Sequence record: OZ335958.1 | DNA length: 64,000 nucleotides | Reading direction: 5' to 3' (one strand) | DNA from: a phage | Shown: piece by piece, positions 2,390-49,439 of the stretch | Layout: each line of letters opens with the position of its first letter | Position numbering within the stretch: the first letter of the stretch is position 1 | Notes under the pieces: generated by a model | What the model saw: the letters and a program-made list of their open reading frames with translations, nothing else | What the model was told of the DNA's origin: nothing | Databases searched by the model: none | Position numbers and translations under genes: made by a program

Positions 2390-2423
2390 TTCATTCTCCA
2401 AATTTGTATTGGTTGATAGAGTA

Positions 2424-2453
2424 ATAGTACCACAGAGGAACAGTCTTGTAAAC
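2424..2453 (-). promoter_or_regulatory. T4 early-type promoter (GTTTAC -35, 18-bp spacer, TACTAT -10)
   Basis: Minus-strand GTTTAC at 2453..2448 and TACTAT at 2429..2424; one of about eleven copies of the same 50-bp motif family. Confidence 0.5.
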
Positions 2454-2570
2454 AGTTTTGTGAAAAAATTTTTAATGAATTTACAGGACCTAGAATCATC
2501 TATTTTTCCTAAGTATAGATTTATATTACTTGTATGAAAAAGGGACCCGGAGGTCCCTAGATTTATTCTA

Positions 2571-26849: not shown

Positions 26850-27377
26850 TTATGCGAGTACCGTCTTTAACCGTTCTTCAAACTTCCGAAGAGTATTTTG
26901 GCGTTCAGCTCTTTGCTTTTTGTAAGTTTCAATACGCTCTGAAATGAGAGTGTATCGTTCATTTACTGATTCTTTCATAAAATCAGGAATTTCACGAGAA
27001 GCTTTAATCTCGTCAAATTTATCAATAACAGCTTGCTCTTCAGCAATTAAGTTATCATACATTAAAATATCTTTCTTGATGAACTCAATATCTTCTTGAG
27101 TTACACGAGATAATTTAGATGCTTTATCCTTTTTGTACTGTTCGTTAGTATCACGAGACCAGTGTAATGTACGATTTTTATTCGTATTTTTGTAAATTTC
27201 TACAATACCGATCTCATCAATAATAACGATCCAATTCCAACGGGATTTGTAAATTTGTCCTCCATCAACAGTGATTTCACCTCCGATTGAGATGTCATTA
27301 AAGAACTTGCTTTGTGCCTCAGATTTAAATTTACCATCGTTGTAATTTACCAAGTTGAAAATATCTTTAGCGTTCAT
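26850..27377 (-). CDS. hypothetical protein
   Basis: 175 aa; early-type promoter immediately upstream. Confidence 0.45.
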   Translation of the reverse strand: MNAKDIFNLVNYNDGKFKSEAQSKFFNDISIGGEITVDGGQIYKSRWNWIVIIDEIGIVEIYKNTNKNRTLHWSRDTNEQYKKDKASKLSRVTQEDIEFIKKDILMYDNLIAEEQAVIDKFDEIKASREIPDFMKESVNERYTLISERIETYKKQRAERQNTLRKFEERLKTVLA

Positions 27378-27405
27378 TTTCTGTTCCTCCGTAGTTGATA
27401 GGGTA

Positions 27406-27435
27406 ATAGTACCACAGAGGAACAGTCTTGTAAAC
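27406..27435 (-). promoter_or_regulatory. T4 early-type promoter
   Basis: Minus-strand GTTTAC (27435..27430), 18 bp, TACTAT (27411..27406). Confidence 0.5.
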
Positions 27436-27437
27436 CA

Positions 27438-27752
27438 CTAAAAGAAACTTCTTTCACAATTTTTTCCACTGAACCATGCACTCACTGCTTTCTTAGTCTC
27501 AGGAGCAGTGTTATCCATAAACCATTCAAAGGCAGCCTTTTTATGATTCTGGAGGGCTTCTCGGGCTTTAATCTGCTCACGGTCTATTAACACTAACATA
27601 TGAGCCTTTCTTGTCACCATGGGCTTCTTATGATTTTTTGAATACTCCCAGTCATTTGTCCATCGCATTGTCGTTGCGAACTTAAATACTTCTTCTTTAA
27701 TTTTAGTTTCGTAAATTTCACGAGCCTTTGAGTATAACATCATTACCTCCAT
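27438..27752 (-). CDS. hypothetical protein
   Basis: 104-aa ORF. Confidence 0.4.
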   Translation of the reverse strand: MEVMMLYSKAREIYETKIKEEVFKFATTMRWTNDWEYSKNHKKPMVTRKAHMLVLIDREQIKAREALQNHKKAAFEWFMDNTAPETKKAVSAWFSGKNCERSFF

Positions 27753-28810: not shown

Positions 28811-28846
28811 TTTATTCTCCAATTTCACATTTGTTTTGATAGGGTA

Positions 28847-28876
28847 ATAGTATCACACTACTACCCTACTGTAAAC
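28847..28876 (-). promoter_or_regulatory. T4 early-type promoter
   Basis: Minus-strand GTTTAC (28876..28871), 18 bp, TACTAT (28852..28847). Confidence 0.5.
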
Positions 28877-28879
28877 AAT

Positions 28880-29143
28880 TTATTTTAATGTTTGCCAAAT
28901 TTTTACTGCTTCGCGACGAGATACTTCTACAGCTCCAAGTTCTACGGCTTTTTGGCGTCGGCGAGCATGTAAGTCATAATGTTTAATGCGTTTATCTTGA
29001 AACCAAGAACGTTTCATTCCTATTGCTTCTGCCATTTTATGAAGCTCTTCAATATCTCCATCAGTGAACATATGACAATTTTTAGTTGGATGACCGCGAA
29101 GTTTCCATCCATGATTCATTAAAACATCTACGTAAACTGTCAT
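28880..29143 (-). CDS. small hypothetical protein (possibly DUF4031-like)
   Basis: 87 aa; MTVYVD...HYDL...GA.EVSRREA pattern resembles a phage DUF from memory only. Confidence 0.35.
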   Translation of the reverse strand: MTVYVDVLMNHGWKLRGHPTKNCHMFTDGDIEELHKMAEAIGMKRSWFQDKRIKHYDLHARRRQKAVELGAVEVSRREAVKIWQTLK

Positions 29144-34512: not shown

Positions 34513-34698
34513 TTAAAGCGTATTCACATAAGCTATTAATTCGTTTTCTTTCTTATCAAACCGATCAGCAAATTCTTCTTGCTGATCGGGAGATAGCGGG
34601 CCGTATTCATCATAAAAGGTGTTTGCTTCTGTATGCTCATCTAGAAGTTCATGGATAAGCTCAAACAATTTATCTTTTTGTTCTTTACTCAGACTCAT
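34513..34698 (-). CDS. hypothetical acidic protein
   Basis: 61-aa ORF. Confidence 0.4.
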   Translation of the reverse strand: MSLSKEQKDKLFELIHELLDEHTEANTFYDEYGPLSPDQQEEFADRFDKKENELIAYVNTL

Positions 34699-36875: not shown

Positions 36876-37337
36876 TCATTGAGTTTTAATTACTGCTTTA
36901 GAAGCCTTTCCTGGTAAACGACGACTGTTGATAATTGCCATCCTGCATTGAAGCGACGGGTCTTTGAACTTCGCATTAGGTTTACAAACTGTAAATCCAA
37001 GCCAAAGATTTCCATCTGTGATTTCTAAACGTCCAGGACGGTATTCAACCCCATCAATAAAATCCTCATCAATGTCAGGACGCGGAGGCATACTCAGGAA
37101 TTCATTAACTTCTAAAACATGGTCTTTTATTTTGTGGAATAATTCAAAAACATATGTCTCATCAATCTCCCGTTGAATTGCACGATCAAGAAGATGCTGA
37201 GAATATTTTAGATGAAACGATGAGACCCCTGCTGCTTTTGATGCCTCACGAATCTCATTGTTAATTTGACGAAACTCCGACTCAAAGTGACGACGAAGCT
37301 TATTTCGACGGATAAAAACTTCTGTGTTGATAGTCAT
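36876..37337 (-). CDS. regB: site-specific endoribonuclease RegB
   Basis: 153-aa ORF recognised as T4 RegB by length, position and sequence. Confidence 0.8.
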   Translation of the reverse strand: MTINTEVFIRRNKLRRHFESEFRQINNEIREASKAAGVSSFHLKYSQHLLDRAIQREIDETYVFELFHKIKDHVLEVNEFLSMPPRPDIDEDFIDGVEYRPGRLEITDGNLWLGFTVCKPNAKFKDPSLQCRMAIINSRRLPGKASKAVIKTQ

Positions 37338-37364
37338 GTTATTCTCCTCTTAACTGATAGAAAA

Positions 37365-37394
37365 ATTATACCACAGTCAAGAGGAAAAGTAAAC
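37365..37394 (-). promoter_or_regulatory. T4 early-type promoter upstream of regB
   Basis: Minus-strand GTTTAC (37394..37389), 18 bp, TATAAT (37370..37365). Confidence 0.55.
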
Positions 37395-37396
37395 AG

Positions 37397-37717
37397 TTAT
37401 TCTTTAAATCTAATCAATTTATTCATAGACTTTGAAACTTCTGCACGGACCTCATGTAGGTTTTTAAGCTGTTCAAGACGCTGCTCATAGTAAGCAATTT
37501 CATCTTCTTCGAGACAGTCCTGTGAATCTTCTTTAAGATAACGTGCATAGTCCTGGAAAGCTTTACGGACTACTTCTTGGAAGTCATCAAGACTTTGAAT
37601 TTTCTTAGGAGCAACAGATACACGACGAGGGGCAGTATAATACTCATAACCAAACCCTGCGCTTAATTGAGCCATTAATATTTTTCCTCTGGTTGGAACA
37701 CAGCACGACAAGCCCAC
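37397..37717 (-). CDS. hypothetical protein
   Basis: 106-aa ORF. Confidence 0.4.
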
Positions 37718-38523: not shown

Positions 38524-38904
38524 TCAATTAGAAAATAAATTTATCCAAGATTGTTCTTTAATTAAAAATGGCTCAGAATCATATGCCATTAAACTTTGTG
38601 TGATTAGTCCTTTAAAAGGCCCATCAATAAATTCCATAGTAAAATATGGAATTTTATTCATTAGTCGTGCATTAGGAGCAGTGCACAAAACTCTGCATCC
38701 TTTGAATACGCCTTTTTGTAATTTGTACTGCTTAGGATAAAATTCGCTCAAGACGTTATTATTTGCCAAAATTTCAAAATGATTCACCAACTTATTTTTA
38801 ATAGTTTTTGGTGAAAAATAAAGATATTCGAAAAGCTGTGTGTCTGTCATCATTGCATTCCAATCACAAAAAATTGAGGACGAGTAATACCGCCAATGCA
38901 GCAT
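38524..38904 (-). CDS. hypothetical protein
   Basis: 126-aa ORF. Confidence 0.4.
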   Translation of the reverse strand: MLHWRYYSSSIFCDWNAMMTDTQLFEYLYFSPKTIKNKLVNHFEILANNNVLSEFYPKQYKLQKGVFKGCRVLCTAPNARLMNKIPYFTMEFIDGPFKGLITQSLMAYDSEPFLIKEQSWINLFSN

Positions 38905-39542: not shown

Positions 39543-40016
39543 TTATTTGAATGATTTGACGTACTGAATAGAGCCTTTGCTATTCACGAAAGCGATTTTA
39601 CCATTTTTGTTATACATGGTAGCAGTACGCTGATAGCCATAAGTTTGCTTACCAGATTGATAACCAACTAGTGCGAAATTATCTTCACCCATTTTATTCT
39701 GCTTAGCGCGGATACGTTCATGACCGTGCGCCATAAGAACCTTAGCATCACCAGTTGCAATGGATCTACGAGTTTTTTCATCTTCAACTGTATTAACAAA
39801 GTCGTCAAATGAATCAAATTTAGCATGAGATTTATTATACAGTTTTCCATCTACTGCATAATTATATCCCTGTACATCCATCTCAACTTCTGTACCATCA
39901 TCTAATACAGCAGTGATTTTTTGACCTTTTTTAAATTTCAAAAGATCAGTAAAAGATTCAGCAATAATTTGAGAATTAATAGCTGCTTCAGTGATAAATT
40001 CTTGATATGTTTTCAT
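39543..40016 (-). CDS. internal-protein-like capsid-targeted protein
   Basis: 157 aa; N-terminus MKTYQEFITEA matches the T4 internal protein capsid targeting sequence; body unlike IPI/II/III. Confidence 0.55.
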   Translation of the reverse strand: MKTYQEFITEAAINSQIIAESFTDLLKFKKGQKITAVLDDGTEVEMDVQGYNYAVDGKLYNKSHAKFDSFDDFVNTVEDEKTRRSIATGDAKVLMAHGHERIRAKQNKMGEDNFALVGYQSGKQTYGYQRTATMYNKNGKIAFVNSKGSIQYVKSFK

Positions 40017-40025
40017 GTGTTTCCT

Positions 40026-40442
40026 TTAAATGTAAATATTTTTGCCGTAGTATTTATACCAGTGTGGCTTCATTAAAATTTTTTCATCGAGTCGTTGTTG
40101 ACTCAATTTAATAGCCGATTTGCATTGGTTATAATCATTTTTCCATTCTGCTGGAATATCGCTGATGTCAGGAACTTCAGTATCTTTTATACTAAACCCA
40201 CGTTTTAAGCATTCCGCTATAATGTCTGATTGACGCTTTCGCAAAAATTCTAACTTATCATAAAAGAACGTAACATGACCAGAACCTAAAATAAACTCGG
40301 AAGATATTTTAAAATCTTTAACCCGCTTACCATTTGCCACATGTTTACGAACTATACCAAAAACACGTGGCAATTCACGGTATTCTGCGATTAAATGTTG
40401 ATCAGCAAGTTCAGATACTAAAGTCAAATTAATACGAGTCAT
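40026..40442 (-). CDS. denV: endonuclease V (pyrimidine dimer DNA glycosylase)
   Basis: 138-aa [31 protein letters not shown] recognised as T4 DenV. Confidence 0.85.
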
Positions 40443-40450
40443 TTTATCCC

Positions 40451-40496
40451 TCCTAGAATTGTGAATATACTATCACAATTCTAGGAGAAAGTAAAC
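40451..40496 (-). promoter_or_regulatory. early-type promoter embedded in a 14-bp perfect inverted repeat that includes the denV Shine-Dalgarno
   Basis: Arms TCCTAGAATTGTGA (40451..40464) and TCACAATTCTAGGA (40473..40486) flank the -10 region; GTTTAC at 40496..40491. Confidence 0.5.
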
Positions 40497-40500
40497 AACT

Positions 40501-41031
<531 letters not shown>

Positions 41032-41487
41032 TTAAAAGAGGCTGTTCATTATTCGGTAAAGTGAAGGACCCATCACATATTGCCACTGAGTACGAGGAAT
41101 AAGAGCAAAAGCATCCATCTCTGGAATCATAACGCCATCTTTATTTTCAAAATAAGACTCGCAATGGCAATTTCTAAACATCTCATGCTCTACTGGAATC
41201 GTATAATAAAATAACTGTAAGTCTTTATTACTAGAATATTTAAATACACCTAAGTCTTCTAGAAGGTCTGGATTATAATCGATAAAACCAGTCTCTTCTG
41301 AGCATTCTCTTTTTGCAGCTTCCAGTGCATTCAAATCAGAACTTTCTACACGCCCCTTTGGAATATCCCAGCGATGTGCCATCATTCCAGGTTTACGAGA
41401 ACCGGTAACTCGTCCCATAAATAAATCTTTATCTTCTGTCATAAAGATAATACCAGCTGATAATGTTTTCATTTTAATTTCCTGCAT
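41032..41487 (-). CDS. nudE: Nudix hydrolase
   Basis: 151 aa; Nudix box GRVESSDLNALEAAKRECSEETG. Confidence 0.8.
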   Translation of the reverse strand: MQEIKMKTLSAGIIFMTEDKDLFMGRVTGSRKPGMMAHRWDIPKGRVESSDLNALEAAKRECSEETGFIDYNPDLLEDLGVFKYSSNKDLQLFYYTIPVEHEMFRNCHCESYFENKDGVMIPEMDAFALIPRTQWQYVMGPSLYRIMNSLF

Positions 41488-47868: not shown

Positions 47869-48056
47869 TATTCACCTTTAGAAATTTTATCCATAACAAT
47901 AGCAATTAAACCAATTAAAAATGCTACTACAAGTGAAAAAACATTTTCTGCCGTAGTCAATAATCCGCATATAAATCCAACAAACATTGAAAAACTGAAA
48001 GCGGAAGCAGAAATTGCAATAGCAACATTTCGAATTAATTCACAACGTTTCATTTT
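47868..48056 (-). CDS. small membrane protein
   Basis: Internal ATG (MKRCELIRNVAIAISASAF..., 62 aa) downstream of promoter; track ORF extends to 48194 through promoter DNA. Confidence 0.4.
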   Translation of the reverse strand, partial: KMKRCELIRNVAIAISASAFSFSMFVGFICGLLTTAENVFSLVVAFLIGLIAIVMDKISKGE

Positions 48057-48080
48057 ATTCTCCTCAGTAGTTGATAGGGT

Positions 48081-48110
48081 AATAGTATCACTACCCCATC
48101 TAAAAGTAAA
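48081..48110 (-). promoter_or_regulatory. T4 early-type promoter (GTAAAT variant)
   Basis: Minus-strand ATTTAC (48110..48105), 18 bp, TACTAT (48086..48081). Confidence 0.4.
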
Positions 48111-48111
48111 T

Positions 48112-48345
48112 TTATTTTTTACGAAAAATTGATTTATTTTCTGCTGCCCATTTTTCAATAACTGCAGCAGGACCAGTAACAACAATTTTATCACCGTAAT
48201 CTTCTGCGGCGAGTTGACCGAAATTATCTAATGCATCACGAAGAACTCCATGAGGCATTTCACCCATTTTATCTTTCTTGCCGGTGTAAATAAACTCAAC
48301 TTTTACATCAGAAGATTCAGCGATAAATTCTTGATAAGTTTTCAT
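48112..48345 (-). CDS. internal-protein-like small protein (IPI position)
   Basis: ATG at 48345 gives MKTYQEFIAESSDV... (77 aa), exact capsid-targeting N-terminus; body unlike T4 IPI as recalled. Confidence 0.55.
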   Translation of the reverse strand: MKTYQEFIAESSDVKVEFIYTGKKDKMGEMPHGVLRDALDNFGQLAAEDYGDKIVVTGPAAVIEKWAAENKSIFRKK

Positions 48346-48382
48346 TTTAGTTTCCATTCGATTGTTTTGTTTTGATAGGGTA

Positions 48383-48412
48383 ATAGTATCACAACTAAAA
48401 CCCTATGTAAAC
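48383..48412 (-). promoter_or_regulatory. T4 early-type promoter
   Basis: Minus-strand GTTTAC (48412..48407), 18 bp, TACTAT (48388..48383); 7-bp inverted repeat flanks the -10. Confidence 0.5.
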
Positions 48413-48424
48413 AACTTTGTGAAA

Positions 48425-48682
48425 TTATTTTAAATCTTCTAATCGTTTCTTCATCTTAGAACCATTTTTAGCAATTTCTCCTGCATCGGAGCATAATGCT
48501 AAAAGTGCTTTAACTTTCGTTTGGTCTCCTTTAAAAGATGAAGGATCTACTGCAGCAGCAAGTTCTTTAATACGAGAGAAAAGACGCTCAGCTTCAGCTA
48601 AAGCCATTCCAAGCTTTACTTCCATACCGTGGGAAGATTCAGTGATAGTAGTTTTTGCAGCAAACTCTTTGAAAGTTTTCAT
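48425..48682 (-). CDS. internal-protein-like small protein
   Basis: 85 aa, N-terminus MKTFKEFAAKTTITES (targeting-sequence-like), helical Ala/Lys-rich body. Confidence 0.45.
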   Translation of the reverse strand: MKTFKEFAAKTTITESSHGMEVKLGMALAEAERLFSRIKELAAAVDPSSFKGDQTKVKALLALCSDAGEIAKNGSKMKKRLEDLK

Positions 48683-48702
48683 TTTATTTTCCTAATTAAT
48701 TT

Positions 48703-48742
48703 TGATGAGGTAATAGTATCACTACCTCATCAGCATGTAAAC
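48703..48742 (-). promoter_or_regulatory. early-type promoter with 10-bp perfect inverted repeat around the -10
   Basis: Arms TGATGAGGTA (48703..48712) and TACCTCATCA (48724..48733); TACTAT at 48718..48713; GTTTAC at 48742..48737. Confidence 0.5.
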
Positions 48743-48754
48743 AACTTTGTGAAA

Positions 48755-49439
<685 letters not shown>

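Follow-up and report, generated by a model that had tools for sequence, protein, structure and literature searches.

A hairpin that contains both the -10 box of an early promoter and the Shine-Dalgarno (SD) sequence of denV, the gene for endonuclease V, precedes this gene in the 64,000-nt stretch of phage DNA analysed here (OZ335958.1; this whole stretch is called the window below). In our judgement, a promoter-early stem-loop (PeSL) type of cassette has probably been fused by recombination to the denV leader, where it would gate DenV translation on RNA that reads through from upstream. Such gating is plausible and is supported by the comparison with related phages. The denV cassette appears from its sequence to be a recombinant copy of a cassette which has long been annotated in T4, and the element itself is not new.

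The inverted repeat and the promoter within it

The window comes from a Tequatrovirus, a close relative of T4, and its top matches are phages a48 and BW-1 (~99% over 1.2 kb). The denV gene (40442..40026, minus strand, as are the features of the locus below unless stated otherwise) encodes a pyrimidine-dimer glycosylase of 138 aa (phrog_1183, E = 1e-61). It follows the lysozyme gene e (40995..40501), whose open reading frame (ORF) is near-identical to that of T4 lysozyme. Read-through transcripts come into the cassette at the stop codon TAA of e (40501..40503). The spacer between e and denV has 58 nt (40443-40500), and in the mRNA sense the region reads TAA-A-GTTGTTTACTTT-CTCCTAGAATTGTGA-TAGTATAT-TCACAATTCTAGGAG-GGATAAA-ATG.

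The inverted repeat in this spacer (40450-40464 / 40473-40487 on the plus strand, with an 8-nt loop) is perfect over 15 bp. The original prediction had described it as a perfect repeat of 14 bp; it was right about the perfection and one pair short in the length. This is the longest perfect short-loop inverted repeat in the whole 64 kb, and dinucleotide shuffles gave a mean of 0.03 repeats of at least 14 bp per window. The next-longest perfect short-loop repeats, at 34561-34589 and 38629-38654, have arms of 11 bp (CCGATCAGCAA/TTGCTGATCGG) and 10 bp (AAATTCCATA/TATGGAATTT), respectively.

The 5' arm of the hairpin, CTCCTAGAATTGTGA (40473..40487), lies in the promoter spacer. It begins with the anti-SD bases CTCC and ends with the TGn of an extended -10, whose TG is at 40475-40474. 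The -10 hexamer TAGTAT (40472..40467) is inside the 8-nt loop (40465-40472). The -35 hexamer TTTACT (40495..40490; GTTTAC is at 40496..40491) is 17 nt upstream of the -10 and is itself preceded by an A/T-rich stretch, ATAAAAATCTATAAAG. The 3' arm is TCACAATTCTAGGAG (40450..40464). The denV SD, AGGAGGG (40448..40454), has its AGGAG in the perfect arm, and U40488 and U40489 form wobble pairs with its final two G. Both the bracketing of an early-type -10 region by the repeat and the placement of the denV SD in the downstream arm had been predicted, and the anatomy agrees with both.

The sequence TTTACT-17-TAGTAT with TGn fits the early-promoter consensus of T4 and PST, TTTACW-N17-TAYWAT (PMC4122927), save for one base, the G at position 3 of the -10. 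A generic sigma-70 scan did not list this promoter, because it matches the E. coli hexamers TTGACA/TATAAT at only 8 of 12 positions. We call the promoter from its homology and its fit to the T4-specific consensus. At the corresponding place in phage fPS-90, an early promoter had been predicted independently by the annotators of that genome, and the depositors of the homologous T4 cassettes annotated -10 regions between the arms. The T4 e-ipIII cassette, which is also homologous, has the same GATAGTATATTCAC as the -10 region of the window. The late promoter TATAAATA was not found in the spacer 40443-40500. The promoter inside the hairpin is of the early sigma-70 type. Its transcription start site (TSS) is predicted at ~40460, an A which is 7 nt past the -10 (40458..40462). 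We infer from the usual sigma-70 spacing that the start falls inside the 3' arm, so that promoter-initiated RNA would not contain the 5' arm.

Predicted folding of read-through and promoter-initiated RNA

The 86-nt read-through RNA was predicted to fold with a free energy of -32.6 kcal/mol (z = -7.8), and none of 200 shuffled sequences was as stable. The RNA stem has 18 pairs, consisting of the perfect 15, two U.G pairs and one A-U pair, and the entire AGGAGGGA (AGGAGGG(A)) is paired. In both the minimum free energy and the centroid structures, an outer 8-bp helix of AGUUGUUU (40493..40500) with AAAUGACU (40444..40437) covers the denV AUG in the read-through RNA. In contrast, RNA from the predicted TSS had no more structure than shuffled sequence (z = +0.2). 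The mean unpaired probability of the denV SD was 0.01 in read-through RNA versus 0.54 in promoter-initiated RNA. Among the 122 gene starts called in the window, the SD unpaired probability in long RNA was typically 0.4-0.6, and it was 0.05 or lower at only five. The antisense strand of the denV leader folds 6 kcal/mol less well. A search of Rfam with 39900-41100 gave no family match at E <= 1 on either strand. In silico, these values bear out the prediction that read-through RNA hides the ribosome-binding site (RBS) and that RNA started inside the hairpin leaves it free.

We propose the following sequence of events. Cassette recombination would have joined a palindrome like stem-loop B/B' of T4 (see below) directly to the denV leader. 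Early in infection, transcripts from the internal promoter would be without the first arm, their RBS would be free, and DenV would be made. Transcripts from upstream (which would start at early or middle promoters or, at later times, at the two late promoters before gene e) would contain both arms. This read-through RNA would fold co-transcriptionally, and the 18-bp hairpin and the outer helix would bury the SD and the AUG, leaving denV silent. As a net result, the synthesis of DenV would depend on how active its own early promoter is, although RNA across the gene would be present throughout infection. The hairpin could possibly also serve as a barrier or a 3'-end structure for the upstream mRNA.

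In the window, two T4 late promoters TATAAATA (41029-41022 and 41016-41009) lie upstream of gene e; late transcripts that pass through e and enter the cassette probably start there. In T4, denV has early RNA and early protein, whereas e, ipIII and ipII have early RNA but late protein (PMC9697503 supplements). This suggests that read-through RNA exists and that control of translation separates these genes from denV. RegB provides another indication. It cuts GGAG in early SD sequences and is inhibited by secondary structure, and an engineered T4 denV mRNA, with an A-rich sequence following GGAG, was cleaved efficiently at this GGAG in vivo (PMC1702504). Because RegB is inhibited by structure and yet cut this mRNA, the transcripts detected there have an open SD.

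The duplex might instead be a processing site, for example for host RNase III, at which e is split from denV and the SD is destroyed, or it might shield GGAG from RegB. We regard this as very improbable. The duplex has ~26 stacked pairs with a single 2x2 internal loop, which would suit such a role, but the common allele of the relatives and the T4-type stems have 10-17 bp and are interrupted, and are thus short for RNase III. Shielding is in keeping with the cleavage of early-SD GGAG by RegB and its inhibition by structure. The GGAUAAA that follows GGAG here is also without a C at position 9, which Durand et al. (PMC1702504) hold to be the probable reason why RegB cuts T4 denV RNA poorly. The RegB resistance of T4 denV, however, was traced to sequence and not to structure (PMC1702504). 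After the denV GGAG (40448-40453), the window has GGAUAAA, with G at position 5, where T4 has AACACUA. Judged by these bases, promoter-initiated denV mRNA of the window phage may be sensitive to RegB.

Comparison with T4 stem-loops and PeSL cassettes

The 58.3-65.5 kb early region of T4 in GenBank (X04567, which we take to be the work of Valerie et al. 1986) contains four stem-loops, each labelled as "putative stem-loop; potential transcription terminator" of the upstream gene. A/A' is located after e and has the ipIII -10 inside. B/B' (1342-1377) is located after ipIII and before ipII, and the ipII -10 is in its loop. C/C' is located after ipII, with the denV -10 inside it and the denV RBS inside C'. 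D/D' is located before ORF 61.9 (regB), with the RBS inside D'. The original prediction had treated the arrangement as one apparently applied to denV here; as new anatomy this does not hold, since C/C', with the RBS inside C', has the same anatomy and was already in X04567.

C/C' is at the orthologous place before denV. Similar to the hairpin of the window, it has the -10 between the arms and the RBS in the downstream arm, the anti-SD (T)CTCC comes after GTTTAC, and GGAG forms the end of the 3' arm. It differs from the window in that the stem is imperfect and of other sequence (TCTCCTGTAG/CTACAGGAGA) and in that denV follows ipII, not e. Its depositors read it as a terminator of the upstream gene and not as a translational gate.

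The arms of the window hairpin are those of B/B'. The T4 arms TCCTAGAATTGTGA and TCACAATTCTAGGA are identical to them over 14 bp (40473-40486 corresponds to B and 40451-40464 to B'), GTTTAC is upstream, and the -10 is in an 8-nt loop. The loop reads TAGTATAT in the window and AATATATTA in T4, and the downstream gene differs too. In T4, B' is ~35 nt away from the ipII SD and no RBS is sequestered, whereas the window has the arm joined to the denV leader, with the AGGA of the arm as part of the denV SD. By this comparison, the palindrome was evidently not built for denV.

Cassettes of this kind have been described in T4-like phages as PeSLs (Arbiol et al. 2010, PMC2839356; Comeau et al. 2014, PMC4122927). 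As in the window, they are intergenic and combine an A/T-rich stretch with an early promoter of sigma-70-like type, a stem-loop placed over the promoter boxes or between them, and then an SD and a start codon; they are repeated within a genome and are located at gene-content breakpoints. The commonest positions of the stem are between -35 and -10, or overlapping the -10 (Arbiol et al., PMC2839356). The window cassette has the clade-consensus promoter, a stem-loop over the boxes followed by an SD, and genomic repetition with gene replacements, all of which define a PeSL. It is unlike the PST stem-loops, which are drawn just upstream of the promoter, in that its stem encloses the -10. In the PeSL papers the stem-loop is treated as a terminator or attenuator and as a recombination site, and occlusion of the SD is not discussed.

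Following these authors, one may take the stem-loop to be chiefly a terminator, an attenuator or a 3'-end stabilizer of the upstream gene (e here, ipII in T4), which would insulate the late lysozyme message, with the SD overlap as a by-product of tight packing. We think this unlikely, though it is the foremost of the alternatives. All of A/A', B/B', C/C' and D/D' carry the depositors' label "potential transcription terminator", and a stem-loop of RB49 lowered downstream lacZ about as much as rrnB T1 (PMC2839356). Terminator activity of PeSLs was tested solely for a G/C-rich RB49 stem. The window stem is A/T-rich, with 5 G-C among its 15 perfect pairs; after it comes GGGAUAAAAUG, in which there is no run of U. 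The denV stem-loop thus lacks the G/C-rich stem with a direct U-run of an intrinsic terminator, and a terminator scan found nothing at the denV leader. A terminator would agree with the T4 palindrome B/B', in which no SD is involved, and with the internal-protein gene after denV, for which read-through is unneeded because it has its own late promoter at 40058-40051. RNA-seq of T4, on the other hand, puts e, ipIII, ipII and denV all in the early RNA class, which is compatible with read-through. We dropped the argument that the internal-protein gene needs late read-through and that there can be no terminator, given the late promoter TATAAATA at 40058-40051. This motif lies in the 3' end of denV on the minus strand, ~35 nt before the internal virion protein gene. 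The functions of terminator and translational gate are mutually compatible.

An RBS-sequestering hairpin with an internal promoter is known from T4 (McPheeters et al. 1986). The arrangement is established for T4 e, soc, 49 and I-TevI, a list that does not include denV (review PMC3014915). As in this class, the SD and/or the AUG are paired in long transcripts (in the window, in the predicted fold), and the promoter is placed so that its transcripts lose the 5' strand (in the window, from the predicted TSS). In the T4 class, however, the internal promoter is late (TATAAATA) and the silent RNA is early, whereas the window has an early internal promoter, and it is read-through RNA, late RNA included, that would be silent. 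The logic of genes e and 49 which had been suggested for denV thus stands for the hairpin-gate anatomy but not for the temporal polarity, which is a mirror image. The classic RBS-sequestering hairpin of T4 lysozyme is also found in the window, in the gene e leader ...TATAAATACCTTCTATAAATACTTAGGAGGTATTATG (40996-41031), ~500 nt from the denV cassette, and both gene e late promoters TATAAATA sit within this leader.

Conservation of the denV leader

We gathered denV loci from annotated phage records and IMG/VR and obtained 32 distinct Tevenvirinae leaders. Pattern matches whose leader is not T4-type (L090, L103 and L122) were excluded. In all 32 leaders there are GTTTAC and a -10 box, and the SD is part of a hairpin; the weak cases are VR26 (L005), with local pairing of just 5 bp, and L034, with a weak fold. 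In Type 1 leaders (the window, T4, JS98 and others), the 5' arm is in the promoter spacer and the anti-SD CTCC is 2-3 bases past the -35. In Type 2 leaders, among them those of phiR1-RT and pKp20, the 5' arm shares bases with the -10 and the discriminator. The anti-SD is upstream of the predicted TSS in both types, and these two arrangements, with the anti-SD in the spacer or in the -10/discriminator, would have the same result. The gene preceding denV varies among the phages (e, ipII, orf114, an internal virion protein gene, or a gene for a hypothetical protein). That the SD is in the 3' arm of all Tevenvirinae denV leaders, despite the varied upstream genes and the two 5'-arm positions, argues against the stem-loop being chiefly a terminator of the upstream gene.

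A canonical terminator is found at the equivalent place of jumbo-phage denV loci (L025, L027, L028 and L036), which also speaks against that explanation for the Tevenvirinae. There, a G/C hairpin with a T-run, overlapping the -35, occupies the region ~60-20 nt before denV and leaves the SD free. This hairpin is GGGTTGAC-TTCG-GTCAGCCC followed by a T-run, and its 5' arm holds the -35 TTGACT of a TTGACT-18-TATAAT promoter. The jumbo-phage element is a true overlap of terminator and promoter with a free SD.

The alignment of Type 1 leaders was anchored solely on CTCC and GGAG and hence was not fitted to pairing. In this alignment, 89.9% of the cells pair, compared to 41-52% when the partner was slid, and changes on both sides were found at 7 of the 11 pairs. 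The covariation score was 0.51, versus 0.05-0.15 for the slid controls. The compensatory changes in unrelated stems of other genera argue for selection on pairing rather than mere descent. Sequence comparison supports that the design of the denV leader is conserved, with compensatory changes, in several Tevenvirinae genera. Type 2 leaders gave a poor register with MAFFT/RNAalifold (consensus of -0.76 kcal/mol), and the Type 2 arrangement was derived from single-sequence folds.

Several points weigh against gating of DenV translation as the role of the hairpin. The identical T4 palindrome B/B' brackets the ipII -10 without touching the ipII SD; since it leaves this SD free, the palindrome has some reason to exist that is independent of the SD. 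Both the depositors of X04567 and the authors of the PeSL papers interpret such stem-loops as terminators or attenuators. The covariation score was reached by 0 of 500 shuffles, but because the leaders are phylogenetically related, this control overstates significance and independence. The 5' untranslated regions have just 17-24 nt, and therefore any hairpin which includes the SD necessarily extends upstream of the TSS, so that position counts for less as an argument. A comparison of sense with antisense folding for the 32 leaders gave 14/32 (p = 0.39), with 42 versus 22 G.U pairs. A literature search found no 5'-end or translation data on the T4 denV hairpin.

The result of the sense/antisense test is compatible with symmetry at the DNA level or with selection on the other strand, and the perfect palindrome is centred on the -10. 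The palindrome could act as DNA: a dimeric DNA-binding protein might use it as an operator, or it might form a cruciform and so modulate the promoter. We find this scarcely credible, however, because the arm sequences are wholly different between related phages while the pairing persists, which is unexpected for a protein recognition site, and because the common allele is not a DNA palindrome. In the clade of the window, moreover, the sense RNA gains U.G pairs, which are C.A mismatches on the other strand, and is 3.5-7.4 kcal/mol stabler.

Origin of the window allele

The close relatives (a48, ZCEC15, slur13, a15, teqhad, SH-2, fPS-90 and one IMG/VR contig) have ...TCACA(A/G)TT(A/G)(C/T)TTGGAGGG at this place. 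In all sampled relatives the stem is interrupted (7 + 10 bp) and has -22 to -24 kcal/mol, versus -32 in the window. The common interrupted allele reads ...TCACAATTACTTGGAGG, and the relatives (L001, L007 and L130-L136) have ...TTACTTGGAGG where the window (40450-40487) has ...TTCTAGGAGG. This common imperfect allele still buries the SD (-23.7 kcal/mol). The perfect allele was absent from the other records among 50,697 phage records, in which the best full-length match to the 57-nt core differs twice. A scan of IMG/VR for the exact palindrome gave no match. The two differences are a 1-nt deletion and a T-to-A change, and each of them perfects the palindrome. This pattern suggests templated quasi-palindrome correction or conversion from a cassette of the T4 B/B' type. 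Templated correction of quasi-palindromes (Ripley's model) is a mutational mechanism that was reportedly first described in T4.

The 5' flank of the window cassette, from the end of e through the -35 box to where the arm begins, matches the T4 e-ipIII cassette at ~96% identity, and the B/B'-type arm joins the denV leader at the shared AGGAG. The gene order is e-denV-internal protein gene in the window versus e-ipIII-ipII-denV in T4, and the junction falls within the cassette. As judged from these sequences, the difference in gene order at the internal-protein locus is what the cassette-shuffling model of PeSLs describes.

These data raise the question of whether the hairpin is a neutral recombination scar of modular cassette shuffling, with a palindrome that arose by templated correction or by B/B'-type conversion. 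The ~96% identity between the T4 e-ipIII cassette and the spacer's 5' part, the arms equal to B/B', the junction at AGGAG and the changed gene order would all agree with this. So would the fact that the perfect allele was in no other record of the 50,697 phage genomes and that both of its differences perfect the palindrome. PeSLs have been proposed as recombination sites (PMC2839356, PMC4122927), and a "half cassette" upstream of the gene ending at 2389 shares the 5' half with the cassette at 27377 (see below) without its complementary 3' half. The common imperfect allele, however, still buries the SD, as noted above, and unrelated stems in other genera bury the SD too, with compensatory changes. 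A scar explains the origin of the allele well but not the persistence of the design, and as an explanation of the hairpin as a whole we consider it improbable. Recombination that fused the cassette to denV is itself part of the reading which we favour.

Other early-promoter cassettes of the window

There are 15 strong T4-type early promoters just upstream of genes in the window, with shared blocks such as TACTATTACCCTATCAACTAC. The SD is buried completely against sequence upstream of the predicted start in 3 of these 15, namely at denV, at regB (start 37337) and at the gene starting at 27377. Two further cassettes (starts 44276 and 29289) show weak burial of the SD. With just three of 15 cassettes burying the SD completely, the design is not generic to early promoters.

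The gene regB (37337..36876, minus strand; phrog_1323) encodes the RegB endoribonuclease. Its leader at 37338-37400 has GTTTAC and, within the spacer, an anti-SD arm; the loop contains TATAAT, and the 3' arm contains the SD (GAGGAG). The unpaired probability of its SD is 0.03 in long RNA versus 0.80 in short RNA. This leader corresponds to the T4 "inverted repeat D/D'" in X04567. The gene at 27377 (27377..26850, minus strand; phrog_2274) encodes a protein of 175 aa whose function is unknown, and its leader (27378-27440) has the same design, CTGTTCCTC...GGAGGAACAG, with unpaired probabilities of 0.00 and 0.81 in long and short RNA, respectively. We propose tentatively that a conserved variant of the gene e arrangement, with an early promoter in place of the late one, serves in the Tevenvirinae for certain early genes (denV, regB and one or more others such as that at 27377). 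Abundant read-through RNA of the early, middle and late kinds would then be silent, and synthesis would track the shut-off of the promoter rather than the amount of RNA. This wider proposal is possible, but we hold it with less confidence than the one for denV.

The "half cassette" mentioned above (2390-2474, minus strand) lies upstream of the gene ending at 2389. Its promoter and its 5' arm GTTTACAAGACTGTTCCTCTGTGGTACTATTAC are nearly identical to those of the 27377 cassette; it is without the complementary 3' arm, and its SD is free. From its sequence it looks like the product of recombination between cassettes. Four other cassettes on the minus strand, at 48683-48767, 48054-48138, 48346-48430 and 28811-28895 (starts 48682, 48053, 48345 and 28810, respectively), have small hairpins, such as TAGGGTAGTGATACTATTACCCTA (TAGGGTA...TACCCTA), which bracket the TGn/-10 alone and leave the SD free. 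Two of the genes that follow them begin with an internal-protein leader, MKTYQEF or MKTFKEF.

The remaining neighbours of the denV locus are nudE (41487..41032) and the internal virion protein gene (40016..39543), which begins 9 nt after denV.

Biological significance

The practical impact of these findings is modest: the principle was known already, and the arrangement at T4 denV has been in GenBank (X04567) since 1986. For annotation, they caution against calling such stem-loops terminators by default. If our reading is correct, promoter/stem-loop cassettes, so far viewed as terminators and recombination sites, would have a second function. DenV and RegB would then belong, with lysozyme, Soc, endonuclease VII and I-TevI, to the T4 proteins that are timed by the promoter from which their RNA originates, with a polarity opposite to that of the lysozyme class, on early and off later. 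This would also offer a simple reason for the mismatch between RNA-seq and protein timing of neighbouring T4 genes.

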